Part shown: positions 17,502 to 42,090 of the stretch, piece after piece | Layout: every line of letters begins with the position of its first letter | Position numbering within the stretch: position 1 is the first letter of the stretch | NCBI GenBank assembly: GCA_964570365.1 | Contig: CAZMXT010000004.1 | Span: forward strand, 2,792-66,791 | DNA from: an uncultured Pseudomonadales bacterium | GTDB taxonomy: Bacteria; Patescibacteriota; Microgenomatia; UBA1400; PJMF01 | Length of the DNA: 64,000 nt | Reading direction: 5' to 3' | Notes under the pieces: model-generated | Told to the model about the DNA's origin: nothing | Database searches by the model: none | Seen by the model: only the letters and a program-made list of their open reading frames with translations | Position numbers and translations under genes: made by a program

Positions 17502-18191
17502 ATGCCGTTGCATATTGCGATCGATGGTCCAGTTGCCGCTGGCAAAGGGACTGTAGCTCGTTTGGTTGCCCAGCGACTTGGTTTACTCTACATCGACACT
17601 GGCGCGATGTATCGGATGACGGCGTTATTGGCAACACGTCATCAGGTGGATTGTAGTGATGAAGCCAAAATTCTCGATTTGCTGGCTCAATCCAAGATGC
17701 ATATGCGTAACCCTATTGGGGAAGAGCAGGATGGTCGTTTGAGCACTGTTCTGTTAAACGATGAAGATGTGTCCTGGGAGATTCGCACCGAGAAAATCAG
17801 TGTTGGGAGCTCTAAGGTCGCAGCTCTAAAAGGCGTCCGAGAGTTTCTCGTCAGTAAACAACAGCAAATTGCCAATGATCAAGACGTGGTGATGGAAGGT
17901 CGAGATATTACCTATAAAGTTTTACCGAACGCCAATCTGAAAATTTACTTAACTGCTACGCCAGAAGTTCGAGCCAAACGTCGCCACTTTGAGCTCCAGT
18001 CCCGAGGTCAAGATGTGAGTTATGAAGATGTCTATCAGGACTTGCTTCGTCGAGACGAACAAGATACAACTAGGAATGTTGACCCGTTAAAAATAGTCAG
18101 TGATGCATGGATGCTCGATACAACGAACTTAACCATCGAAGAAGTCGTGGACTTAATAGTTAAACGCGCTCAGCCTTTACGTTCATCATGA
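17502..18191 (+). CDS. cmk: cytidylate kinase
   Basis: IAIDGPVAAGKGTVARLVAQRLGLLYIDTGAMYR is the cmk signature. It terminates with TGA, confirming TGA is a stop in this genome. Confidence 0.9.
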   Translation: MPLHIAIDGPVAAGKGTVARLVAQRLGLLYIDTGAMYRMTALLATRHQVDCSDEAKILDLLAQSKMHMRNPIGEEQDGRLSTVLLNDEDVSWEIRTEKISVGSSKVAALKGVREFLVSKQQQIANDQDVVMEGRDITYKVLPNANLKIYLTATPEVRAKRRHFELQSRGQDVSYEDVYQDLLRRDEQDTTRNVDPLKIVSDAWMLDTTNLTIEEVVDLIVKRAQPLRSS

Positions 18192-18454
18192 AATTTTTTT
18201 CCCGAGGCAAGAAAAACGAGGCAGAAGAGCAGGAAGTATCGCCTGATGATGAGTTATTAGATAAAATTGATGAGCTCCAAAAAACCACTCAAGAAATAGA
18301 GGAAGAAAAATATCAAAAGAAGCTCGCTCGTGAGGAACGAAAGTTCCACAAAGAGCAGGCGTTGAAGCGCAAAAAACGCGAACGTTGGGTTGCGCCAGTT
18401 CTATTACTCCTGACAATACTCGTTTCCTACTTGGTGTGGATTTTTTCTCGTTAA
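18188..18454 (+). CDS. small coiled-coil protein with C-terminal TM helix
   Basis: 88 aa, start overlapping the cmk stop (ATGA). Charged coiled-coil followed by a hydrophobic tail. Confidence 0.4.
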   Translation: MKFFSRGKKNEAEEQEVSPDDELLDKIDELQKTTQEIEEEKYQKKLAREERKFHKEQALKRKKRERWVAPVLLLLTILVSYLVWIFSR

Positions 18455-20826
18455 CGTTGGGTTGAAGTCCCATTCAAAATTCTATCTCTCGTAGGTACCT
18501 GGGACGGCCTGGCTGATGGTCTAGGTGAAGAATACAACTGGTTTGGAGTGCAAGCCAGCTTGGGCTGAGTGCCAGCGACAAACAATTCCTCTCTGACCAC
18601 GGGACAGCCGCGACAAGGGAGGGTACCAGTTTTGACACAGATCTGAACTTTCACTAAGCCTTCCGGTGTCGTAAAACGGTGTGGAGCTTCATCACTGAGA
18701 GAAGTTCGTATAATTTTATTCCAGATTGGAGAGGCTCCGGTAATACCTGAGGCAACATAACTCATCGGGGTATTATCATTATTACCCACCCAGACGGACA
18801 CCACTCGGTCGGTAGTGTATCCAAAGGTCCAGTTATCTCGCAAGTTGTTGGTAGTTCCCGTTTTAACGGCCACCTGTTGGTTGGGAATCGTCAGCACTGA
18901 GTTGGGGCCAAAGCCAGAAGTGCGGGCGACGTTATCAGCTAAAATATCAGTGATCTGATAGGCAACTTTGGCATCCAAGGTTTTAGTTCGGACGCACTCA
19001 GTTTTCTCCAACGCGCATGTATTTTTATAGAGTACTTCTCCTTTGGAGTTGCGAACCTCTAAGATTGGGTTGAGTTTGACGGTGTATCCACCATTGGCAA
19101 AAGTGCCATAGACCTGGGCCATCTCAGTCATCAAGATCTCTCCGCCTCCTAAAGTTAAAGACAGACCAAAGCGTTTTCGGTCCTGCCAAGTGGTGATGCC
19201 CATCTGTTCAGCTTTATCAAGCATGGTGGAAATGCCAATCGAGGCGAGGGTTTTCACCGCTGGGATGTTATACGAAGAGCCAAGTGCCTCTCGGATAGTT
19301 ACGTTGCCGTGAAAGCGACCATCATAGTTTTTGGGTGAGTACGGGGGAGAGCCAGCCACTTGGAAGGTAACGGGTTCATCAGCGATGGTGGAAGAGGGGC
19401 TTTTACCATTTTCCAAAGCAATCGCATAGGTCAACGGTTTAATTGAGGAACCAGGTTGGCGGGGGCGCAGAGTGACGTTGACCTGACCATCGTTGGCAAA
19501 GTCAAAGTAGTTTTTACTCCCAACCATTGCGAGTATTTCGCCAGTCTGAGGGGCAGTCACTAAGGCTGCACCATTGGAAATACGCAGCCGAGCTAGGTTA
19601 TCTAATTCTTGAGAGACCAGCTCTTGAGTTTGATCCTGGGTCTTCAGATCCAACGTTGTTCTGACTTCAAGTCCACCTTGATTCACTACATCTTCGCCAT
19701 AGTCTTCGGCGAGTAAATTCTTAACGTACATCACAAAGTGAGGCGCTCGAATGTCTGTCATATCAGGACGGAACTGTAAGATTTCGGCTCTGGCCTGTTG
19801 AGCTTCTTGCTCAGAAATGTAGCGATCTTCTACCATTCGTCGCAGAACTTCGCGTTGGCGTCCGTAGGCCAGCTCAGGGCTAGGACCGAATGGTGAGTAA
19901 ACTGAAGGGGCTGCTGGTAGCCCCGCCAGGAAAGAACTCTCAGCCAGATTAAGCTGGATGGCTGCTTTGCCAAAGTATTGTTGGGCTGCTTCTTCAACGC
20001 CATAGGTGGAGCCACCATAGGCAACTTCATTGAAGTACATCTCTAAAATTTCTTCTTTGGTGAAGGTGCCTTCGAGCAAGAGTGAGAGGAGTACTTCACG
20101 AATCTTGCGCTTGAGGGTTTTCTCTCTACTGAGGAGGGTGTTTTTAACCAGCTGTTGAGTAATCGTAGAACCACCTTGGAGCTTTTCTCCTTGGGAGTTT
20201 TCTCGAACTGCACGCAGAATTCCCTTTATAGAAAAACCATGGTGAGAGAAGAAGTAGCGATCTTCAATCGCTACTGTAGCGTTCTTCATCTGGTCAGGGA
20301 CGGCAGATAAGGAAATTAAGGTTCTATTCTCATCTTTGTAAATGCGGTAGAGCACCTCACCATTTCGATCCAGAATCTTCGTCGTTAAAATTTGTTGTCT
20401 TTTCGTGAGGTCGCTTACTTGAGGTAGGTCTCTAAAAACAATTTCGTAGGTGTAGTGTGCAGAAGCCAGGATGGCTACGCTGATTAAAATAGAGAAGATG
20501 GTTAACCACGGGTGGAAACGAATAACAAAGTAAAAAGGTTGAAGCAGCTCTTTCCAGATGAAGCGAAGAACAGGATTGGGTGGGCGAGGGCGTGTTCGCG
20601 GCCGACCGGGCTTTTTTTTTACCGCTGGTTTGGCTAAAAGCGCGAAAAACCAGTACCTGACTCCCTTTCCAGAAACAGTAGATGGAGTACGAGTTGGGAG
20701 TTTCTGAACCCTATTTTTTTTAGATTTTGCAGCAGTAGGCTGAGCTTTTTTGGCTTTTTTTCGAGGCGCAACTTTGGGGTAAATTATGATCGAATTTTTT
20801 CGCCTGATGGGTGGACGTTTAGCCAT
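18451..20826 (-). CDS. class A penicillin-binding protein (bifunctional GT51 transglycosylase/transpeptidase)
   Basis: GT51 motifs (EDRYFFSHHG, TITQQLVKN) and transpeptidase motifs (SSIKP, KTGTT). About 100-aa Lys/Pro-rich cytoplasmic N-terminal extension. Confidence 0.9.
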   Translation of the reverse strand: MAKRPPIRRKNSIIIYPKVAPRKKAKKAQPTAAKSKKNRVQKLPTRTPSTVSGKGVRYWFFALLAKPAVKKKPGRPRTRPRPPNPVLRFIWKELLQPFYFVIRFHPWLTIFSILISVAILASAHYTYEIVFRDLPQVSDLTKRQQILTTKILDRNGEVLYRIYKDENRTLISLSAVPDQMKNATVAIEDRYFFSHHGFSIKGILRAVRENSQGEKLQGGSTITQQLVKNTLLSREKTLKRKIREVLLSLLLEGTFTKEEILEMYFNEVAYGGSTYGVEEAAQQYFGKAAIQLNLAESSFLAGLPAAPSVYSPFGPSPELAYGRQREVLRRMVEDRYISEQEAQQARAEILQFRPDMTDIRAPHFVMYVKNLLAEDYGEDVVNQGGLEVRTTLDLKTQDQTQELVSQELDNLARLRISNGAALVTAPQTGEILAMVGSKNYFDFANDGQVNVTLRPRQPGSSIKPLTYAIALENGKSPSSTIADEPVTFQVAGSPPYSPKNYDGRFHGNVTIREALGSSYNIPAVKTLASIGISTMLDKAEQMGITTWQDRKRFGLSLTLGGGEILMTEMAQVYGTFANGGYTVKLNPILEVRNSKGEVLYKNTCALEKTECVRTKTLDAKVAYQITDILADNVARTSGFGPNSVLTIPNQQVAVKTGTTNNLRDNWTFGYTTDRVVSVWVGNNDNTPMSYVASGITGASPIWNKIIRTSLSDEAPHRFTTPEGLVKVQICVKTGTLPCRGCPVVREELFVAGTQPKLACTPNQLYSSPRPSARPSQVPTRDRILNGTSTQR

Positions 20827-20888: not shown

Positions 20889-22184
20889 TTAATTCTTTCT
20901 TTTTATCACATCCCATAGCTCACGGGAGGCTGCTTCATAGCCTAATGCCCAAATTGCAATACCACCTAAATTGAGTTGATCTACCAGATCCATTTTATAA
21001 GAGAGGGATCTAGAGTTTTCATAATAGAGCACATAATTTTCAGTGCCTCGCTGAAAAACTAGGTAAGGAGAGAGAGCTAACTCATCCCAATTTTCTTTTA
21101 AGTTCAGCACGCTACCTTCAGTTAAGATACCCTGAACTCGCGAAAAACTGGCGGTCGCACCAGAGCCGGGATAGGTAGGAGACAGAGCCTGTTGGTCGGT
21201 AGTCTGCCACTCGTAGCCATAAAAAGGGACGCCTAGAAGCAATTTCTGGCTAGGTACAACTTTTAAAAATTCTTGTAAATGCATCATGATGTCAGTTCGC
21301 CAGTTTTCACCACCACCAAAGATAGGCGCCACTGGACCTGCTACGTTAGAAGAAGCTCGGTGAAAGTCATACGCCATGATCACAATTAAATCTACTTGAG
21401 GTGCAATCGCCGCCACGTCCCAGATATGAGGGCGGGAAACAGCACTGGGGTACATATCGATAGAGAGACGGATAGGAGTTTCCTTTTTGTCAAAGTGAGT
21501 CCTGATTTCAGTTATCAGCTGAGCTAAGCCCTTGCGCAGAGCCGGATCAGGCTCTCCAGCATACTCAATATCAATATTAATTCCTGTAATGGGAAGCTCC
21601 GAGATGACAGAATCTAAGGAACTCAAGAAACGCCTGCGGGCGTCTGGGTTAGGCAGAAAAGCCTGGATATCATCTTTTTTAAATTGAGAAAGGACTAGTT
21701 CTATCTCTGTCCCTTCGGCACGTTCCTGTTTCACCATTTGAGCGAGTGTCTCAGATTTGAACTTAGCATAACCAGGGTCTTTGCTCGACACAAAGCTACC
21801 ATCTTTGGCAATAGTCAGACCAAAGTATGCTAGGTGGGTAAGCTCGGGCTGGAGGACGACTTTTCCTACATTCCAAAAAGGGAGAAACCCATAGACGAGT
21901 TTTGAGCCAGGTTTAGATGGAGGAGTTGTTCGAGAGTGAAACTGAAAAGAAGCGATGGTTGCTAAGGGGGAAACTATTTTTCCTGAGTGGAACCAAAAAA
22001 AAGTAAAGCTGACCAAACTACTGACGATGACGATGCAAAAAACTGCTAGTGGGGAAAGCTTGGGGCCCAACTTTTCAAACAAGTTGTTACTCTCCGACTT
22101 CTTCAAACACGAAGTCGCTGCTGATATCTTGTTGCTCAAAAATGATTTTACCTGCTTCATCCACTGGTCGATTGCAGTTTTCAC
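20889..22184 (-). CDS. glycoside hydrolase family 18 protein (membrane-anchored, peptidoglycan/chitin hydrolase-like)
   Basis: GH18 catalytic motif (GINIDIEYAG) and C-terminal GGIAIWALGYEA. N-terminal TM. The start codon is uncertain because of overlap with the upstream PBP gene. Confidence 0.7.
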   Translation of the reverse strand: MKTAIDQWMKQVKSFLSNKISAATSCLKKSESNNLFEKLGPKLSPLAVFCIVIVSSLVSFTFFWFHSGKIVSPLATIASFQFHSRTTPPSKPGSKLVYGFLPFWNVGKVVLQPELTHLAYFGLTIAKDGSFVSSKDPGYAKFKSETLAQMVKQERAEGTEIELVLSQFKKDDIQAFLPNPDARRRFLSSLDSVISELPITGINIDIEYAGEPDPALRKGLAQLITEIRTHFDKKETPIRLSIDMYPSAVSRPHIWDVAAIAPQVDLIVIMAYDFHRASSNVAGPVAPIFGGGENWRTDIMMHLQEFLKVVPSQKLLLGVPFYGYEWQTTDQQALSPTYPGSGATASFSRVQGILTEGSVLNLKENWDELALSPYLVFQRGTENYVLYYENSRSLSYKMDLVDQLNLGGIAIWALGYEAASRELWDVIKRKN

Positions 22185-24579
22185 AGTACTCCACTGTAAA
22201 TGGATCTGTCAGTACATTCCGCTTTTCTAGTACTAGCCCGTCAGAAGATTCACCGGGCTTAGGTGGTAAGCCAGTTTCTGGTCTGATCCAAATTTCTTTT
22301 TCAACGTACTGTGCTTGTGAAGGTTTGGACTTTCGCCAGTAAAGCTCTTGATTTTTAACTGCGCAGTTGGGGCCACCACTTTGGGGAGGAAAGCCATTTA
22401 TACAGACGCCGCTAGCAGTCACGTCACTGGGCTTCTCAGGTAAGACGGGTGGTAATCCTCTCAGTACATAACTCATCAGATCATTAAAAATTGGAGCTGC
22501 GCCAGTGATACCAGAAACGAGAGATCGATTCATCGGTGAGCCATCGTTATTGCCGACCCAGACTATGGTCAAAAACTCTGGAGTAAAGCCTACAGTCCAG
22601 TTATCTTTTAAGTCATTGGTGGTGCCAGTCTTGACGCTGACCACTTGGTCAGGAATAACCAACTGAGATCGAGGGCCAAAAGCAGCTGTTCGAGCATTAT
22701 TATCTTGCATAATGTGCGCGGCTAAGTAAGCGGGGGCTCTATTCATGACTCTTTCTAAGCCCTCAACTTCAGTTTCTTCTTCATCCTCAGTTAGAATCTG
22801 GAGCGCTTCTTTTCGGTCAGCTAGGCTCACTGAATCAATTAAGTTGCCTTTGTAGTCTTCCACCTTGAGGATTGGAATTAAAGGAACTTTCACGCCTTGG
22901 TTGGCTAAGACGCCAAACGCTTGTGCCATGTCAATCATCCGGACTTCACCGCCACCCAGAGTTAAAGATAAGCCATAATTACTGGCGTCTACCCAGGAGC
23001 TGATGCCCATCTTGCGGGCATGCTCAATCAGTTTCTCTACGCCAATCAGGCGTAACGCCTTCACCGCGGGAATATTTAATGAGTTGCCCAAGGAAAAGCG
23101 GATACTGACTGGTCCTCTAAACGAGCCATCGTAATTTTTCGGGCAGTACGGTTTTTGACCTGGAACGGTGAAGCAGGTGGGGATATCGAGCAGATATGAG
23201 CCTGGGTTTAAAACTTTTTCTTGGAACGTGACCGCATACATAATTGGTTTGATCGAAGAACCAGGCTGGCGCTGAGAGAGAGTCACGTTCACCTGACCAT
23301 CCTCGGCAGTATTGAAATAGTCCTTGGAGCCCACCATGGCTAGAATTTCTCCTGTGTTTGGTTTCACAATTAAGGCAGCTCCATTGCCAACTCGCGAAGT
23401 CTTTAATTTCTCCACTTCTGCTGAGACAGAAGCTTGTGCTGCTTCCTGCAAATCGAGGTCTAAGGTAGTAGTGACGCGTAATCCACCTTTCTCGACAACG
23501 TCCTCACCATACTTTTGGTACAACATATCTCGGACAAAGAAGACAAAGTGAGGTGCCTGAATATCGGTCCTAGAAATTGCAAATTTGAGTACTTCCTTCT
23601 GTGCTTGTTCAGCCTGTTCTGGCGTAATGTAGCTATCTTCAGCCATACGGCGCAGCACATCACGCTGTCTTTCTTTGGCTTGCTCCGGGGTTGAGCCAAA
23701 AGGTGAGTATCTGGTGGGTGATTGAGGCAGCCCCGCCAGGACTGCCGCTTCTGAAATACTCAAATCCTTGGCTGGTTTATCAAAGTAACGCTGCGCTGCG
23801 GTCTCGATTCCCACTGAGGTTCCACCATAGGAAATATAGTTGAGATACATTTCTAAAATTTCCTCTTTTGAGTAAATTACTTCGGTTGCCATCGAGAGAA
23901 CTCCTTCTTTGATCTTGCGCTGGAGTGAACGTTCGTTGGTCAGGAGGGCATTCTTGACTAACTGTTGCGTAATGGTAGAACCACCTTCTAGGCGTTTGCC
24001 CTGCAGGGTATTTCGGAGCGCGCGGATAATTCCAGCCACGTCAAAGCCAAAGTGGTGATAAAAGTTCTTATCTTCGATGGCAATTGCTGCCTGATAGACA
24101 TGTGGTGGTAAGTCACTGATCTTGATTGGAACTCGATTCTCATCCGCAAAAATCTCATACAGTAATCGACCTTTGCGGTCAAAAATTTGCGTACTGACCG
24201 AGTAGTTTTCAGAAGAAGTCAGCCGGCGAGGCGAAGGGAGCTCTCGTAGAATATAGAGTAAGCCTAAGATGGAGCCGAGTACTACTAAAATTGTTAGGTA
24301 ACGGAACGCTTTATTGCGAACTGGGAAAGTCAGTATTCTGACAAGAAGGGGAAGTTTACGTTTTTTACTGGGCGGTGCTTTCTCAGGTTTTTCCCTTTTC
24401 TGAAAAAAATGAGGCAGCTTCCCAAACCACTTATTTTTCTTTGCTGCTGGTTTCTCCTGAGTTGGAATAGTTGGTGGAGTAGTTTTCACTGGCGCAGAAA
24501 AACCACCCTCAAACATGCTTTTTACATTTGAGAGTTTTTGGTAAGATGAACGACCAGCGTCAGCCGAGTTGCGTATCAT
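22087..24579 (-). CDS. class A penicillin-binding protein (second paralog)
   Basis: EDKNFYHHFG, TITQQLVKN, SSIKP and KTGTT motifs. 830 aa with a Lys-rich cytoplasmic N-terminal tail. Confidence 0.9.
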   Translation of the reverse strand: MIRNSADAGRSSYQKLSNVKSMFEGGFSAPVKTTPPTIPTQEKPAAKKNKWFGKLPHFFQKREKPEKAPPSKKRKLPLLVRILTFPVRNKAFRYLTILVVLGSILGLLYILRELPSPRRLTSSENYSVSTQIFDRKGRLLYEIFADENRVPIKISDLPPHVYQAAIAIEDKNFYHHFGFDVAGIIRALRNTLQGKRLEGGSTITQQLVKNALLTNERSLQRKIKEGVLSMATEVIYSKEEILEMYLNYISYGGTSVGIETAAQRYFDKPAKDLSISEAAVLAGLPQSPTRYSPFGSTPEQAKERQRDVLRRMAEDSYITPEQAEQAQKEVLKFAISRTDIQAPHFVFFVRDMLYQKYGEDVVEKGGLRVTTTLDLDLQEAAQASVSAEVEKLKTSRVGNGAALIVKPNTGEILAMVGSKDYFNTAEDGQVNVTLSQRQPGSSIKPIMYAVTFQEKVLNPGSYLLDIPTCFTVPGQKPYCPKNYDGSFRGPVSIRFSLGNSLNIPAVKALRLIGVEKLIEHARKMGISSWVDASNYGLSLTLGGGEVRMIDMAQAFGVLANQGVKVPLIPILKVEDYKGNLIDSVSLADRKEALQILTEDEEETEVEGLERVMNRAPAYLAAHIMQDNNARTAAFGPRSQLVIPDQVVSVKTGTTNDLKDNWTVGFTPEFLTIVWVGNNDGSPMNRSLVSGITGAAPIFNDLMSYVLRGLPPVLPEKPSDVTASGVCINGFPPQSGGPNCAVKNQELYWRKSKPSQAQYVEKEIWIRPETGLPPKPGESSDGLVLEKRNVLTDPFTVEYCENCNRPVDEAGKIIFEQQDISSDFVFEEVGE

Positions 24580-24611: not shown

Positions 24612-24635
24612 ATAGTGGAGAGATTATCCACTATT
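24612..24635. promoter_or_regulatory. perfect 8-bp inverted repeat ATAGTGGA-N8-TCCACTAT (candidate operator) between divergent PBP and HEPN-like genes
   Basis: Read directly from the sequence. It ends 12 bp upstream of the ATG at 24647. Confidence 0.3.
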
Positions 24636-24646
24636 GACCATGTTTT

Positions 24647-25141
24647 ATGCAACGTTTCGGAGTGTTCTCTACACAGTCATGGTACCTCAATTTATCACCT
24701 TGGCAACGAGATTTAGTGCGCATTGGTCTGGAGCTGTACGCTCGGGAAGAGCGGATGAAGTCTGGGTATGACGATTATTCTTACGTTGTTTTTCCAATCG
24801 CCAAAGCCTATGAAGGCTTTCTAAAGCAGTATTTTTATGATTTAGGCTTTATTGATTATATGACATATAGCGACAGACGCTTCCGAATTGGGCGGGTATT
24901 GAATCCAGACGTGAGCCCAAGTCGTCAAGATGAGTTCTGGATGTATGGTCGATTAGCCCAGATGTGTGGTGCTGGACTGGCTCGGGGTCTGTGGGATGTC
25001 TGGTTGCAGTGTCGAAACCAAGTCTTCCATTATTACCCAGATAATCAACGGAAGTTGACACTCAGTGAAGCAAGCAACTATATTGAGATGCTTGCTTCTG
25101 CAATGGAGCAGGCGTATCAATGTCAAACTAAGAATACTTAA
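24647..25141 (+). CDS. hypothetical protein with C-terminal HEPN-like R-N-x-x-x-H motif
   Basis: 164-aa, probably all-alpha protein. WLQCRNQVFHYY fits the Rx4-6H HEPN motif, RNxxAH-like as in Abi_2/DUF4145 families. No other recognisable domain. Confidence 0.35.
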   Translation: MQRFGVFSTQSWYLNLSPWQRDLVRIGLELYAREERMKSGYDDYSYVVFPIAKAYEGFLKQYFYDLGFIDYMTYSDRRFRIGRVLNPDVSPSRQDEFWMYGRLAQMCGAGLARGLWDVWLQCRNQVFHYYPDNQRKLTLSEASNYIEMLASAMEQAYQCQTKNT

Positions 25142-25169
25142 TAAGTAAATAGTATGTATAATTCTGTAT

Positions 25170-25808
25170 ATGTCCAATACCTCTGACTTCAGCCACTACA
25201 AATACAAAAATCTGACCATATCTGGTATGCCAGGTTGCGGATCTACTACCCTGCTAAACCTTCTCCGCGAAGAACTCAAGTTTGATGGCTGGAAAGGCTT
25301 TAGTGGTGGGGAGTTCATGCGTGCCTACGCCGAGGAAAAGGGACTCTTTAATAAAGATGCTGGGTACCACCACGACGCTCGACATTATGAAGATTCATTT
25401 GACTGGCAAGTTGATATGGGGATGCGTGAGAAGCTAAAAACTCAGCGCAGCTGGATTATTGAGTCTTGGTTATCTGGATTCCTTGCTCAGCAAGTACCAC
25501 ACGTGTTGAAGATCTTGATGGTCTGCAGTGAGGACGCAGTTCGGGTGGACCGAATCGTGAATCGCGATCAAGTAACAGTTGATGTAGCCAAGAAGAACAT
25601 GCAAGATCGCTATGAAGCAAACTTGGCAAAGTGGTCAAGAATGTACAAAGCCCAGTGGGAAGAGTGGGTCGTGAAACCCGGAACCCAAAAACCCAACGAT
25701 CTAATTGATTTTTGGCGTCCAGACCTCTACGATCTAGTTATAGATACCTATTCCACGAACCAGCAACAAACGCTGCAGCTTGTCCTGAATGAGATTAAAA
25801 AAGAGTAA
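25170..25808 (+). CDS. P-loop nucleoside/nucleotide monophosphate kinase-like protein (cytidylate-kinase-2/AAA_33-like, divergent)
   Basis: Walker A ISGMPGCGSTTLLNLL. An NMP-binding-like FSGGEFMRAYAEEKG segment resembles archaeal-type CMP kinases. A canonical cmk exists elsewhere at 17502. Confidence 0.55.
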   Translation: MSNTSDFSHYKYKNLTISGMPGCGSTTLLNLLREELKFDGWKGFSGGEFMRAYAEEKGLFNKDAGYHHDARHYEDSFDWQVDMGMREKLKTQRSWIIESWLSGFLAQQVPHVLKILMVCSEDAVRVDRIVNRDQVTVDVAKKNMQDRYEANLAKWSRMYKAQWEEWVVKPGTQKPNDLIDFWRPDLYDLVIDTYSTNQQQTLQLVLNEIKKE

Positions 25809-26514
25809 GTCCTCGAGCAGACTTCGTCGGCCACCAGCCGTTCCTATTGCTGCGACCACAAATACCTATCCTGCGGGAAAACACCTTGCCTTTATCCCAT
25901 TACTTTCACTGGTTTTTATTTTGTGGGTGTTATATCGTTCTTTATTTCGCTTCCCTGTTTGGTTTGATGAGACAATCGGTAAAGCCGTTTTCTTTGGACT
26001 ACCTGTCTGGCTCTATATTTCCCTGGCTGGTAGTAAATCTATTGCCGAGACCTTTGCTCCCAACCGAATTCATAAGGGCTTAATACTGGGGATCACGATT
26101 GGTGGCTTACTTGGGTTTGGCGGAACTCTGGCGACCCTGCTTCAGCAACGAGCTGTGGTCCAAGCTGCACCGCTATTTACTTCTGATGGGTTTTGGGGTG
26201 AGTTCTTTTTGGCCATGATGACTGGGTTTTGGGAAACCCTGTTCTTTTTTAGTTGGATTATGACCATGATTACTGAAAAGTACCGCAAGTGGCCACTACT
26301 CAATCAAGTTTTACTGACCACCATTATCTTTGTGCTATTCCATATTCCTAATACCTTATTGAGGTTTGAGCTTAGCGCCGTCTTTGGTCAATTTTTCTTG
26401 TTATTTTTCTTTGCCTTAGGTCAGGCTTTCCTGTTTGCACGAACCAAAAATCTCTATGCCTTGGCCCTTTCTCACGCGATTTGGGGAATGGTTTTAGTCA
26501 TCCATACCAAGTAA
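25789..26514 (+). CDS. CPBP-family (CAAX protease/Abi-like) intramembrane protease-like protein
   Basis: 7-8 TM helices. The WETLFFFSW, VLFHIPN and LSHAIWG motifs are positioned like CPBP motifs 1-3, though degenerate. It overlaps the kinase gene by 20 nt. Confidence 0.5.
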   Translation: MRLKKSKSSSRLRRPPAVPIAATTNTYPAGKHLAFIPLLSLVFILWVLYRSLFRFPVWFDETIGKAVFFGLPVWLYISLAGSKSIAETFAPNRIHKGLILGITIGGLLGFGGTLATLLQQRAVVQAAPLFTSDGFWGEFFLAMMTGFWETLFFFSWIMTMITEKYRKWPLLNQVLLTTIIFVLFHIPNTLLRFELSAVFGQFFLLFFFALGQAFLFARTKNLYALALSHAIWGMVLVIHTK

Positions 26515-26561
26515 TATATTTGACTTTCACCCCCATACTTGATACAATTTTTCCTTGCTCT

Positions 26562-27086
26562 ATGAAAATGCGGCTTTTTTTGTCGCTTCTAGCGTTCCTC
26601 TTTGGAGGAAGCGTCCTAATTATTTCTCTGTTCAGTGCGACCCCAGTTTCATCTACGGGGTTACGTTCTGCTTCAGAGAATAAACTGTACTTTTCCAAGA
26701 CGATCCTGCCTGATCACGTCTTCTATAAAGCCATCATGGCAATGGATCGGCTGCAGCTGGAAACGGCCTCTAGCCATGAACGGATCTTTATCCAGGTTGA
26801 GTATGCTCACCGCCGTCTTGATTACTCTCAGCAACTTCTCGAAGAAGGCAAGGAAGATTTAGCCATTACTACGCTCACCAAGGCTGAGCAGTACTTGCAC
26901 CATGCGGTAAGCGAGGCCAATGAAACGAATGCTGCTCAGTCCATCAAAGATCGATTGAAGAAAGCTGTGGAGTATCACTCTAAAAAGTTAGAAGAAGTGA
27001 AGCCCAACTACACTGATGGGAACAGAGCAGTGATTGATGGAATTCTCAAAGAACACCTCATTTTGATTGATCTCCTCAAAGCCTAG
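26562..27086 (+). CDS. secreted/membrane-anchored helical protein (DUF5667-like)
   Basis: Signal/anchor MKMRLFLSLLAFLFGGSVLIISLF followed by a helical domain. Start chosen at the ATG after the CPBP stop; the tool ORF began at 26481. Confidence 0.45.
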   Translation: MKMRLFLSLLAFLFGGSVLIISLFSATPVSSTGLRSASENKLYFSKTILPDHVFYKAIMAMDRLQLETASSHERIFIQVEYAHRRLDYSQQLLEEGKEDLAITTLTKAEQYLHHAVSEANETNAAQSIKDRLKKAVEYHSKKLEEVKPNYTDGNRAVIDGILKEHLILIDLLKA

Positions 27087-27166: not shown

Positions 27167-27213
27167 AAAGCTATATATAGTAGGAAAATAAAAAATACCT
27201 ACTAGATCTAGTA
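27167..27213 (+). promoter_or_regulatory. tandem NrdR-box-like palindromes upstream of nrdR-nrdJ
   Basis: aaagCTATATATAGtagg at 27167-27184 and the perfect 14-bp palindrome TACTAGATCTAGTA at 27200-27213. Centres are about 31 bp apart, matching NrdR box phasing. Confidence 0.45.
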
Positions 27214-27227
27214 AAATAAGGCTAGGA

Positions 27228-27713
27228 ATGAAGTGTCCATACTGCTTTGTAAACCAGACAACTGTAACTGATACGCGTGATGCTGATGGTGAGGCGACGA
27301 TTCGTCGTCGCCGAAGGTGTGATACGTGTCTAAAACGGTTTACAACCTATGAGCGAGTAGAAGGTATTGATTTAATAGTGATTAAAAAAGATGGTCGGCA
27401 GGAACAGTTCAGTAGGGAAAAGTTGCGACGCGGGGTGGTCAAAGCAACGTGGAAACGGCCGATCACGATTGATGAGATTGAAGAGTTGCTGACTGATGTA
27501 GAGCGGCGACTACGCGCCAAATCAACTTGTCAGGTGAAAAGTTGGGAAATCGGCAACCTAATTATTAATAAATTGAAGAAAATTGACCAGCTGTCATATC
27601 TCTTGTTTGCCAGTGTCTATCGAGACTTTGATAGCTTAGAAGATTTTCAGAAGGAGATCGAACGGTTAAGTCTATCAGCTGAGTCACGGAAAACCGTTGA
27701 GGCAGTTGAGTAG
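27228..27713 (+). CDS. nrdR: transcriptional repressor NrdR
   Basis: N-terminal zinc ribbon (MKCPYC...CDTC) plus ATP-cone. Confidence 0.9.
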   Translation: MKCPYCFVNQTTVTDTRDADGEATIRRRRRCDTCLKRFTTYERVEGIDLIVIKKDGRQEQFSREKLRRGVVKATWKRPITIDEIEELLTDVERRLRAKSTCQVKSWEIGNLIINKLKKIDQLSYLLFASVYRDFDSLEDFQKEIERLSLSAESRKTVEAVE

Positions 27714-27735
27714 TACACATTCGATAGGAGGATCT

Positions 27736-29931
27736 ATGGCTGCAACACAGTCTTTGCCCAAAAAGAAAATGAAGTTTATCGAACGAAAACTCGATAACGG
27801 AATGGGAATGGCTGTAGCTAAACGAACCTACTTACGCAAAATTATTGAAAAAGGTAGTGGTGCAGAGCGTTGGGAAAGCTGGGGAGAAGTTGCAGACCGT
27901 GTTGCTAAGGGGAACTCTTTATTAATTCCTGCTGCTGAGCGCAAACATCGCCAAGATGAATTTACCTTACTCAAAAAACACATTAGTAATGGTTCAATCC
28001 TAATGTCTGGTCGTCACCTCCAACATGGTGATGAAACCCAGCCAACGCGGAATATGGAAGTTTTTACTAACTGTAGTACTGCTTCCTCCTCGTATATCCT
28101 GTTTTACTTACTGATGAATGGCTCTGGCGTAGGCCGACCCTACGATGACGACATGTGTGTGGTGAACTGGGACAACATGCCCAATGTCAGGTGTGTGATC
28201 GATGACAGCCATCCAGATTTTGTTTGGGGTTTTGATGAAAGTGTCCGTGACACAAAGCATAAGTATGGTGACGGGGAGAACATTCACTGGTTTGAAGTTC
28301 CTGACAGCCGTGAAGGTTGGGCGCAAGCAGTTGAGATGATGGAAGTGATGGCTTACGAGAAAAAATACAAAGATGACATCTTAATCTTAGATTTCTCGAA
28401 GGTGCGGGCCAAAGGCCAGCCAATCAAGGGCATGCAAGATCGTCCTTCTTCTGGACCAAAGCCATTAATGAATGCAATTGAGAAAGTGACCACTTTGAAG
28501 GGTGCCGGTCTCTCACCTTGGAAGCAGACGATGTTCGTGGACCACTACTTGGCAGAGTGTGTGCTGGTGGGGGGAGCTCGTCGTAGTGCTCGGATTGCCA
28601 CCAAAGTTTGGACCGATCCTGAAGTCTTTGACTTTATCCAAATTAAACGAGGCGGCTTTTTATGGAGCGCCAATAACTCGGTAGCTGTTGACGAAAAGTT
28701 CTGGAAGCAACGCGGGAACCATGCTCAAAAAGTTCTGGAAGCTATCATGAAGTCTTCGTATGAAGATATGACTGGTGAGCCAGGTTTTATTAACCAACAT
28801 CGCTTAGTTCAAAACGACACGGGGTATGACGGCTACCAGGATGGGAAGTATGCGGAGAGTTCTAAGTACAAGCCGCTCACTCGCACCGAGAAAATGTTAG
28901 CGCACTTAGCTCGGAATGCAGGAGCCAAAATCTACTCACAGATTCCGAACCCCTGCGGTGAAATTTCACTCAACATGTTGGGCGGGTACTGTGTGATTGC
29001 CGATGTGGTGCCATACTTTGCGCCCACAATAGACGATGCAGAAGAAGCGTTCCGCGCGGCTACCCGAGCGTTAATGCGGGTCAACACCATGGACTGTTTG
29101 TATAACCGAGAGGTGAAGCGGACCAACCGAATTGGGGTGGGCATGACTGGGATTCATGAGTTTGCCTGGAATCAATTTGGCTACAGTTTCCGTGATCTGA
29201 TCAATGAAGAAAAATCCAAAGACTTTTGGTTGACGATTGCCCGCTTTAAACGAGCCGTGCTGACCGAGAGTGAGACGTATGCCAAGAAGATGAAGATGAA
29301 TGTGCCTCATACCAATACCACCATCAAGCCATCGGGTACGATTTCTAAGCTGTTTGCCTTGACTGAAGGCGCTCATTTACCCAGTATGAGAGAGTACATT
29401 CGTTGGGTCCAGTACCGGAGTGATGATCCAATGGTCAAGAAGTACCAGAAGCAGGGCTACCCAATCAAGGAGCTGCGCAGTTACACCGGCTCCACTGCAG
29501 TTGGTTTTCCAACCCAGCCACTAATCTGCCGCATTGGCATGAATGGTGAGTTGGTCACTGCAGCTGAGGCAACTCCGGAAGAACAGTACAAGTGGTTGAT
29601 CTTGTTAGAGAAGTACTGGATTGTTGGCATCGATGAAGCAGGAAATGCCTTAGAAGATACCGGCAACCAAGTTTCCTACACCCTGAAGTACGACCCAAAG
29701 ATCGTTAAGTACGCTGAGTACAGTGAGATGGTCCGCAAGTATCAAGGACTGATTAAGTGTTGTTCAGTCATGCCACAGCAGGATGCAACGGCGTATGAGT
29801 ACCAGCCTGAGCAGCCTGTGACAATCTCTGAGTTTATGCGGGCGCTGAATGAAATTGAAAAGGATGAGACATTGCTTGAGGACATTGATTACGAGCAACT
29901 CAAGTGTGCAACAGGAGCTTGCCCAATTTAA
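27736..29931 (+). CDS. nrdJ: adenosylcobalamin-dependent ribonucleotide reductase (class II, NrdJ-like)
   Basis: Active-site NPCGEI motif and a C-terminal Cys pair (CATGAC). About 730 aa. Start chosen at the ATG preceded by AGGAGG; the tool ORF began at 27697, overlapping nrdR. Confidence 0.8.
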   Translation: MAATQSLPKKKMKFIERKLDNGMGMAVAKRTYLRKIIEKGSGAERWESWGEVADRVAKGNSLLIPAAERKHRQDEFTLLKKHISNGSILMSGRHLQHGDETQPTRNMEVFTNCSTASSSYILFYLLMNGSGVGRPYDDDMCVVNWDNMPNVRCVIDDSHPDFVWGFDESVRDTKHKYGDGENIHWFEVPDSREGWAQAVEMMEVMAYEKKYKDDILILDFSKVRAKGQPIKGMQDRPSSGPKPLMNAIEKVTTLKGAGLSPWKQTMFVDHYLAECVLVGGARRSARIATKVWTDPEVFDFIQIKRGGFLWSANNSVAVDEKFWKQRGNHAQKVLEAIMKSSYEDMTGEPGFINQHRLVQNDTGYDGYQDGKYAESSKYKPLTRTEKMLAHLARNAGAKIYSQIPNPCGEISLNMLGGYCVIADVVPYFAPTIDDAEEAFRAATRALMRVNTMDCLYNREVKRTNRIGVGMTGIHEFAWNQFGYSFRDLINEEKSKDFWLTIARFKRAVLTESETYAKKMKMNVPHTNTTIKPSGTISKLFALTEGAHLPSMREYIRWVQYRSDDPMVKKYQKQGYPIKELRSYTGSTAVGFPTQPLICRIGMNGELVTAAEATPEEQYKWLILLEKYWIVGIDEAGNALEDTGNQVSYTLKYDPKIVKYAEYSEMVRKYQGLIKCCSVMPQQDATAYEYQPEQPVTISEFMRALNEIEKDETLLEDIDYEQLKCATGACPI

Positions 29932-39591: not shown

Positions 39592-39644
39592 AGCAGAAAA
39601 GGCATCATGACCTTGACAAGGTTGTAGTCTGAAGAGAGTGAGAG

Positions 39645-39718
39645 TGTCAAGGGGGAGACTCGAACTCCCAACCTCCACGTTATGAGTGTGGCGCTCTAAC
39701 CAGTTGAGCTACCCTGAC
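39645..39718 (-). tRNA. tRNA with CAU anticodon (elongator Met or Ile2-lysidine type; G1-C72 paired)
   Basis: Hand-folded cloverleaf: GTCAGGG/TA/GCTC-AACTGGTTA-GAGC/G/CCACA-CTCATAA-CGTGG/AGGTT/GGGAG-TTCGAGT-CTCCC/CCTTGAC/A. 74 nt, CCA not encoded. Confidence 0.85.
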
Positions 39719-42016: not shown

Positions 42017-42034
42017 TTATGTTGCGGGACTAGG
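42017..42034. repeat. 18-bp direct repeat, proximal copy overlapping tRNA 3' end
   Basis: Exact match to 41880..41897. Confidence 0.7.
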
Positions 42035-42090
42035 AGTCGAACCTAGCCTGTGAGATTATGAGCCTCACGTGCACCCTACACTATCCCGCG
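42022..42090 (-). tRNA. tRNA-like gene with CAU anticodon, C1·A72 mismatch (initiator-like) and unusually short D-arm (69 nt)
   Basis: Hand-folded: CGCGGGA/TA/GTG-TAGGGTG-CAC/G/TGAGG-CTCATAA-TCTCA/CAGG/CTAGG-TTCGACT-CCTAG/TCCCGCA/A. The 5' and 3' ends closely resemble E. coli tRNA-fMet (CGCGGGG...CCCCGCAACCA). Confidence 0.7.

Follow-up and report, generated by a model that had tools for sequence, protein, structure and literature searches.

HEPN-domain RNases are known mostly as toxins and defence effectors. The described systems closest to the locus treated here are RnlA and LsoA, the RNase LS toxins, each with its antitoxin gene directly downstream (PMC3710099; the RnlA locus in our data set, L171, agrees), and the membrane-associated HEPN proteins, three groups of which have transmembrane segments and have been proposed to cleave RNA at the membrane in a stimulus-dependent manner (PMC3710099; Anantharaman et al., 2013). 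In RnlA, alanine substitution of R255, E258, R318 or H323 abolishes both RNase activity and toxicity in each case, and activity depends on the canonical HEPN dimer (PMC8266594). Here we report on four same-strand open reading frames (ORFs), called genes A, B, C and D, that lie between a divergent gene for a class A penicillin-binding protein (PBP) and nrdR in a 64,000-nucleotide stretch of Microgenomatia DNA (contig CAZMXT010000004.1; hereafter the window, meaning the whole stretch analysed). They encode, in order, a HEPN-domain protein of the RnlA/LsoA type, a protein with the fold of nucleoside monophosphate (NMP) kinases, a CPBP/Rce1-like membrane protein and a DUF5667 protein. The initial annotation, made from the sequence of this stretch, had read the HEPN and kinase genes as a toxin/repair or nucleotide-linked defence pair. 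Our comparison gave A a different partner: the deeply conserved link is that between A and C, as seen from their adjacency in two independent neighbourhoods and from gene fusion, and not that between A and the kinase. The explanation we hold to be probable, if only somewhat so, is a vertically inherited chromosomal block rather than a mobile module, in which A and C form a functional HEPN RNase/CPBP core and B is an insert; it builds on direct observations of fold, motifs, phyletic and contextual pattern, and fusion.

HEPN-CPBP fusions

In the proteins P0185 and P0206 (383 aa) an A domain occupies the N-terminal and a CPBP domain the C-terminal half, an architecture that Pfam confirms (PF18869 + PF02517). 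A search with P0185 recovered at least 25 clusters (90% identity) of full-length A-C fusions, 369-393 aa long and 42-100% identical, which form two subgroups and come from sources named Microgenomates group bacterium and Shapirobacteria. Across 25 fusions the HEPN half has its Lys conserved at 90% or more and its E, R, N and H invariant, and the CPBP half conserves EExxxR, FxxxH and the motif-3 His. The window's A and C are collinear with the two halves of P0206 (E = 2e-33 and 5e-11), and the window's C is an orthologue of the fusions' C-terminal half. At the three loci examined, the fusion gene occupies the corresponding chromosomal position and is transcribed divergently from a PBP pair, with a DUF5667 gene and a ribonucleotide reductase (RNR) gene further downstream in two of the three. 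The fusions come from several sources and from many independent contigs, which makes artefacts of assembly or gene calling unlikely. No A-B fusion was present among the 150 best A-family representatives.

Distribution and gene neighbourhoods of the A family

Relatives of A were found in at least 554 species genomes (pattern scan, one genome per species), and all those that bear names belong to the Patescibacteria (Woesebacteria, Pacebacteria, Gottesmanbacteria, Roizmanbacteria, Shapirobacteria and 'Microgenomates group'). Judging by these names, the family is restricted to Patescibacteria of the Microgenomates type, and the window likewise derives from a bacterium of that type. The family is also small: when 1.84 billion representative proteins were searched with its profile, only 228 clusters (50% identity) were recovered at E <= 1e-3. 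Many records of metagenome-assembled genomes of Patescibacteria that carry the block are titled 'uncultured Pseudomonadales', 'TM6', 'Limisphaerales' or 'Vitreimonas', and are evidently mislabelled.

For the window's own clade (clade I) we compared the 80 best loci and three from look-ups. More distant contexts were gathered from look-ups of distant A relatives and from a metagenome scan whose profile had the most divergent member at its head, and the neighbours in these loci were annotated by locus-built profiles and clustering. Within clade I, B follows A directly in 76 of the 80 loci that reach past A, the commonest order being PBP<GH18<PBP<|A>B>C>D>NrdR>RNR> (GH18, a glycoside hydrolase family 18 protein), and the overlap between B and C has a median of 23 nt (longest-ORF starts). 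Synteny extends equally to the flanking PBP, GH18, NrdR and RNR genes, the whole 13-kb block being kept together, so that conservation within clade I alone does not show a functional module. Identity to the window is 39-63% for A, 55-72% for B, 34-65% for C and 25-59% for D, the PBP next to A showing about 58-72% and RNR about 64-88%; these values point to ordinary purifying selection on A. Rearranged clade-I loci were also seen: at L024 (8499-15662) and L050 the genes B-C-D downstream of A are replaced by a giant opposite-strand ORF of 1226-2387 aa, and at L029 some 4 kb is inserted between A and B.

Across the family A occupies at least five different neighbourhoods, and B is absent from beside A in all of the approximately 90 loci of other clades, including beside the fusion genes examined; among A-family loci, B is a lineage-specific insert found only in the window's clade. 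Context II (L084) has the same chromosomal place without the kinase (PBP<.<PBP< x>A>C>D>NrdR>RNR>). Context IV, which together with the Gottesmanbacteria locus L086 comprises about 20 loci, has A and C in an unrelated neighbourhood (f19>A>C>) with A-C gaps down to 2 nt. The others are context III (about 40 loci; f8>A>mnmA>, without C), context V (11 loci; rplA>(PF13189 kinase<)A>) and context VI (five loci; alaS<A>ytxH<), in which mnmA, rplA and alaS provide housekeeping neighbours. C is the only neighbour of A to recur across independent neighbourhoods. When the A sequences are arranged in a neighbour-joining tree, the leaves that share a context always stand together in a single block, so that context tracks the phylogeny of A, as would be expected of vertical inheritance with occasional rearrangement. 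The co-conservation of the four genes, which the initial annotation had offered as a check, holds within one clade; the other clades lack the kinase beside A, and the flanks are equally syntenic. A conserved small ORF upstream of A was considered as a further shared element and discarded, since the candidates f8, f19 and f20 are mutually unrelated (a secreted protein, a membrane protein and ribosomal protein L1).

A solo HEPN domain of the RNase LS type

The AlphaFold 2 (AF2) model of A (predicted local distance difference test score, pLDDT, 95.7) is all-helical and has the HEPN helical-bundle fold. Searched against the PDB with Foldseek, it matched RnlA best (6y2p; probability 0.99, TM-score 0.62-0.65), with other HEPN proteins next, and this search, which the initial annotation had suggested, bears out its reading of A as a HEPN RNase-motif protein, as does the conserved Rx4H motif. 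Sequence profiles likewise place A in the HEPN subfamily of RnlA/LsoA (PF18869 / PF19034). An A-family profile run against PDB sequences had LsoA on top, in an alignment that pairs DYS..F..[KR]A.EGF and W.E.R...FH, and 24 of 30 A-family members matched the two RnlA-HEPN models of Pfam at E <= 0.01 (best 3e-6) and no other family. The blocks in common with RnlA/LsoA can be written DYxxxxFP...[KR]xxEGxLK and RxxxFH.

The active site appears to be complete. Aligned by hhalign with Escherichia coli RnlA (locus L171), residues 37-162 of A fall on RnlA 239-350, and K53, E56, R123 and H128 pair with RnlA R255, E258, R318 and H323, the four residues whose substitution inactivates RnlA. K53, E56, R80, R123, N124 and H128 are invariant in 30 A-family members. 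The Rx4-6H motif is R123-N124-Q-V-F-H128, with a polar residue after the Arg, and the second catalytic pair (R255/E258 in RnlA) is represented by K53/E56, so that the first basic catalytic residue is Lys in A and Arg in RnlA. The motif WLQCRNQVFHYY, which the initial annotation had put at the end of the protein, is present, but at residues 119-130 of 164 rather than at the C-terminal end.

The differences from RnlA/LsoA lie around this domain. RnlA has two TATA-binding protein (TBP)-like N-terminal domains, whereas A is the HEPN domain only (164 aa), without N-terminal TBP-like or RNase H-like domains. RnlA/LsoA are paired with an RnlB-type antitoxin; downstream of A Pfam gave no RnlB match, the genes there being those for the kinase and the CPBP membrane protein, and it is the latter that stands as the partner of A. 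Moreover, RnlA/LsoA reside in prophages or plasmids, whereas A is chromosomal, vertically inherited and restricted to the Candidate Phyla Radiation (CPR). On its sequence, A amounts to a HEPN domain in minimal, stand-alone form whose RNase LS-type active site is complete, and we predict a metal-independent endoribonuclease that has to dimerise.

More distant A-like HEPN domains were also seen in other architectures. Four proteins (P0265, P0273, P0276, P0294) have one behind two to four predicted transmembrane helices, another membrane-anchored version of this HEPN subfamily; in P0280 and P0303, RNase HIII-like proteins of about 590 aa, an A-like HEPN domain (KxxEGF, CRNxxLH) is inserted between DUF3378 and RNase_HII; and in P0316 the HEPN domain is accompanied by an RnlA N-domain and a cold-shock domain.

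The kinase encoded by gene B

Protein B scores above the Pfam cut-offs for PF13189 (Cytidylate_kin2), AAA_17 and AAA_18, and the GMPGCGSTT and FSGGEFMRAYAEEKG segments from which it had been recognized as a divergent cytidylate-kinase-2-type P-loop kinase are both present. The canonical cmk that had been noted elsewhere is indeed a distinct gene (Table 1). The AF2 model (pLDDT 90) has the P-loop NMP-kinase fold with a LID region, a fold in common with Cytidylate_kin2, and the nearest structures found by Foldseek were NMP kinases: two uncharacterised PF13189 kinases (3hdt and 3fdi, E = 2.5e-8), followed by archaeal adenylate kinase (AK), AK5, Fap7 and UMP/CMP kinase, with no polynucleotide kinase among the top 50 structure matches. 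The P-loop, GxPGCGSTT, has Ser at the usual Lys position and is invariant in orthologues. The best PDB sequence matches, Methanococcus adenylate kinases, have the equivalent GVPGVGSTT (the GxPGxGSTT pattern of AdkA), and an SGGEFxR-like segment is in common with archaeal CMP kinase. Unlike the PF13189 and archaeal kinases, B has an invariant Trp-rich C-terminal part and scores only 63.6 bits against TIGR02173 (archaeal (d)CMP kinase; cut-off 102.1), short of an equivalog-level match, and its window already contains the canonical cmk. B is most simply seen as an enzyme of nucleotide metabolism, the modelled fold arguing against an RNA-end kinase. In Las1-Grc3-type pairs a Clp1/Grc3 polynucleotide kinase is co-conserved with a nuclease; judged by its top 50 structure matches B is not such a kinase, and outside clade I it is absent from beside A.

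The PF13189 kinase of context V was considered as a relative of B and set aside, the similarity being that of P-loops in general (hhalign probability 13.5%). It is encoded on the opposite strand between rplA and A (L146 5243-5983, L149 913-1587, L158 2199-2867, and also L161 and L163), and is more canonical than B (PF13189, 131 bits).

The CPBP and DUF5667 proteins

Protein C scores 37.4 bits against PF02517 (cut-off 22.4) and has several hydrophobic segments, as expected of a polytopic membrane protein of the CPBP/Rce1-like intramembrane glutamic protease family. It does not have the full EExxxR/FxxxH/HxxxN set: the window's motifs are W-E149-xxx-F, with the Arg lost, FxxxH185, which is kept, and H229-xxx-G, with the Asn lost. 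Two motif residues having gone, its description as a degenerate CPBP protein was apt. Throughout the window's clade E149 and H185 are conserved, with the motif-1 Arg changed to Phe or Tyr and the motif-3 Asn to Gly, whereas C orthologues outside this clade keep xExxxR, FxxxH and HxxxN, and the fused forms keep their motifs as well. The N-terminus of C is strongly basic (MRLKKSKSSSRLRR), which under the positive-inside rule would fit a cytoplasmic N-terminus, as the topology of the fusions requires. No association of C with bacteriocin genes or histidine kinases was seen.

Protein D matches DUF5667 (PF18915; 39.1 bits, cut-off 27). The listed ORF runs from a TTG at 26481 to 27086; the ATG at 26562 is the likely start, which puts the N-terminal hydrophobic segment at residues 2-30. 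With this segment and DUF5667, D is a membrane-anchored or secreted helical protein, in line with its first description as a secreted helical protein. L084, L168 and L170 likewise have a DUF5667 gene downstream of A-C.

Alternative explanations

Three other accounts of the block deserve weighing against a HEPN RNase/CPBP core. According to one, the four genes form a single system in which a HEPN toxin or processing nuclease works with a kinase for RNA-end repair or nucleotide defence, as in PrrC/T4 Pnk or Las1-Grc3. This could explain the A-B adjacency of clade I, the tight packing of the genes and the very strong conservation of B (55-77% identity), and it draws some support from the unrelated PF13189 kinase next to A in another clade. 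We nonetheless consider it very unlikely, given that B stands beside A in no other clade and beside none of the fusion genes examined, that A-B fusions are missing from the 150 best representatives, that the nearest structures of B are PF13189 kinases, archaeal AK, AK5 and UMP/CMP kinase, with no polynucleotide kinase in the top 50, and that adjacency alone says little in genomes that keep the entire 13-kb block in order. Defence libraries also gave no matches: a PADLOC scan returned nothing credible for A, C, D or the fusions, and for B only the generic kinase part of pVip-kinase (3.7e-6), while PHROG matches for A-D and the fusions were limited to weak kinase matches. A defence or phage origin of A-D was accordingly rejected, and the block shows no mobile or patchy island distribution, as it keeps the same chromosomal position in about 76 species genomes. 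With B nearest to NMP kinases, housekeeping genes around it, uniform GC content and vertical inheritance, the toxin/repair and defence readings of the initial annotation are not supported. The same scans bear on a second account, in which A and C are a toxin-immunity pair, akin to a type II toxin-antitoxin or abortive-infection system, with a CPBP 'self-immunity' protein neutralising the RnlA-like A. The A-C order does match the toxin-then-antitoxin order of RnlA/LsoA (PMC3710099; locus L171), and CPBP proteins are annotated as self-immunity proteins. Yet context tracks phylogeny over hundreds of species amid housekeeping neighbours, there is no compositional island and no PADLOC match for A, C or the fusions, approximately 56 loci carry A without an adjacent C, and a stable fusion that keeps both catalytic sets would be unusual for a toxin and a labile antitoxin; we regard this account as quite unlikely.

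It is also conceivable, but in our view unlikely, that no functional link exists and that four unrelated lineage-specific genes have been held together by the slow decay of gene order in small CPR genomes. The equal synteny of the flanking PBP, GH18, NrdR and RNR genes, the five or more neighbourhoods of A and the promoter-like sites ahead of B and D (though their count is not above shuffles) are all compatible with this. What it leaves unexplained are the A-C fusions, with two subgroups, at least 25 clusters and conserved motifs in both halves, and the survival of A-C adjacency after relocation to an unrelated neighbourhood. A HEPN RNase/CPBP core accounts for both, and we prefer it, but several observations weigh against it. 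The Foldseek E-values for A are weak (0.4), and A lies below the Pfam gathering score for PF18869 (21.7 versus 29 bits; HEPN_RnaseLS / RnlA-toxin_DBD models) and, at 19 bits, below the cut-off of 27 for the second RnlA/LsoA model (of PF18869 / PF19034) too; by profile score it is a distant relative of the RNase LS families and not a curated member. Contexts III, V and VI, the approximately 56 loci just mentioned, have no CPBP gene beside A, so the pairing is not obligatory in cis. The motif losses in C of the window's clade weaken any protease-based mechanism, and the position of H229 is Gln in 30 of 85 C orthologues. On the side of the kinase, A-B-C-D are tightly packed in clade I, with B and C overlapping in 51 of 54 loci, and a different PF13189 kinase adjoins A in five context-V loci, which leaves room for B to act in the same process as A in clade I. 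Finally, RNase activity, contact between A and C, membrane coupling and a physiological role are all inferred.

Possible mode of action

If A and C do form a core, they would be an ancestral linked pair in which a cytoplasmic RNase LS-type HEPN protein works with or on a CPBP membrane protein. The CPBP partner might tether or control the HEPN RNase, which would act on the cytoplasmic side of the membrane, and RNA cleavage could be coupled to a membrane or envelope signal through CPBP control of HEPN dimerisation, a suggestion that draws on the need of RnlA to dimerise (PMC8266594) and on what has been proposed for membrane HEPN proteins (PMC3710099). In the window's clade, where the motif-1 Arg and motif-3 Asn are gone from C, this protein would more likely be an anchor, scaffold or sensor than a protease. 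B may have been inserted between A and C in this one clade and become translationally coupled to C, and D, a DUF5667 protein that would face the envelope, usually accompanies C. A and C lie beside the cell-wall synthase genes.

The component families are known, but a HEPN-CPBP pairing was not found described: neither the HEPN survey (PMC3710099) nor full-text searches of open-access papers contained the combination, and literature searches on HEPN with CPBP, CAAX or Patescibacteria gave nothing relevant. The pairing would fit among the membrane-associated HEPN RNases and, by analogy, beside the KEN domains of Ire1 and RNase L, in that a cytoplasmic HEPN RNase domain has a membrane module, either joined to it or encoded alongside. 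It differs from the membrane-HEPN groups surveyed in that the module is CPBP/Rce1-like, and the window has separate genes with a kinase gene between them. A bolder proposal is that HEPN-CPBP constitutes an undescribed membrane-coupled RNA-cleavage device of Microgenomatia, analogous to Ire1/RNase L, in which the CPBP protein, encoded near the cell-wall synthases, would sense a membrane or envelope signal and switch HEPN dimerisation and RNase activity, with the inserted clade-I kinase recruited into its operon and process; taken in full, this seems to us unlikely.

Here, an RnlA-type HEPN protein with an intact active site behaves as a lineage-wide, vertically inherited gene of ultra-small uncultured bacteria. 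Were the A-C coupling functional, it would provide bacteria with a new means of linking RNA cleavage to the membrane and would give a role to two of the many uncharacterised CPR-restricted protein families. The case also illustrates that tight packing and co-conservation in one clade can point to the wrong partner; cross-clade comparison and fusions gave the right one.

Layout of the locus and upstream sequences

The features of the locus are collected in Table 1. Gaps between the genes are 28 nt (A-B), 47 nt (C-D) and 141 nt (D-nrdR), with 67 nt between A and the divergent PBP gene, and B and C overlap by exactly 20 nt (ATG of C at 25789, TAA of B at 25806-25808). The GC content of the four genes, 0.44-0.45, is the same as that of the flanks and shows no anomaly. 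Housekeeping genes surround them in the window (smpB, cmk, two PBPs, GH18, nrdR, RNR and tsaD). The GH18 and upstream PBP ORFs overlap by 98 nt as listed, probably because one listed start is too far upstream.

Table 1. Coordinates of genes A-D and associated features in the window.
Feature	Position	Strand	Description
Canonical cmk	17502-18191		PF02224, E = 1.2e-72
Class A PBP	18451-20826	-	Divergent neighbour of A; conserved in clade I
GH18 protein	20889-22184	-	Divergent neighbour; conserved in clade I
Second class A PBP	22087-24579	-	Divergent neighbour next to A; conserved in clade I
Inverted repeat ATAGTGGA-N7-TCCACTAT	24612-24634	no strand	In the 67-nt PBP/A divergent intergenic region
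Gene A	24647-25141	+	164 aa; stand-alone HEPN domain, RnlA/LsoA (RNase LS) type
Gene B	25170-25808	+	212 aa; NMP-kinase-fold protein (PF13189/AAA_18)
Gene C	25789-26514	+	241 aa; CPBP/Rce1-like polytopic membrane protein
Gene D	26562-27086	+	174 aa; N-terminal hydrophobic anchor or signal (residues 2-30), then DUF5667 helical domain
NrdR	27228-27713	+	Downstream neighbour; conserved in clade I
RNR, class II-type	27697-29931	+	Downstream neighbour; conserved in clade I

The 8-bp palindrome reported upstream of A is present 12 nt ahead of the ATG, with a spacer of 7 nt and not 8. It is not above chance, as one match or more, with up to 3 mismatches allowed, turned up in 21 of 100 shuffles of the window, and the same 2.9 kb contains five inverted repeats of a comparable kind. 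The palindrome was seen in one of 167 related loci (L007); the closest relatives have similar sequence at its position, without the dyad symmetry. As a conserved operator it was rejected on these grounds (one other locus only, not above chance), and a promoter or operator element at this repeat is weakly supported as a possibility.

Promoter-like sequences were noted at 25055-25084 (TTGACA-18-TATATT), within the 3' end of gene A and ahead of B, and at 26520-26548 (TTGACT-17-TACAAT with an upstream TG), just ahead of the ATG of D. Promoter and terminator counts in the region were not above those in shuffles, so no operon boundaries are claimed. An Rfam scan gave two tRNAs only, distant from the A-D region; the minus strand carries two tRNA-Met(CAT) genes, at 39644-39718 and 42021-42090, with 2.3 kb between them. 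Some 20-55 nt upstream of the nrdR start, at 27171-27211, are two AT-rich palindromic boxes, CTATATATAGTAGG and CCTACTAGATCTAG, which look like tandem NrdR boxes; if so, nrdR and the RNR gene would be under autoregulation.

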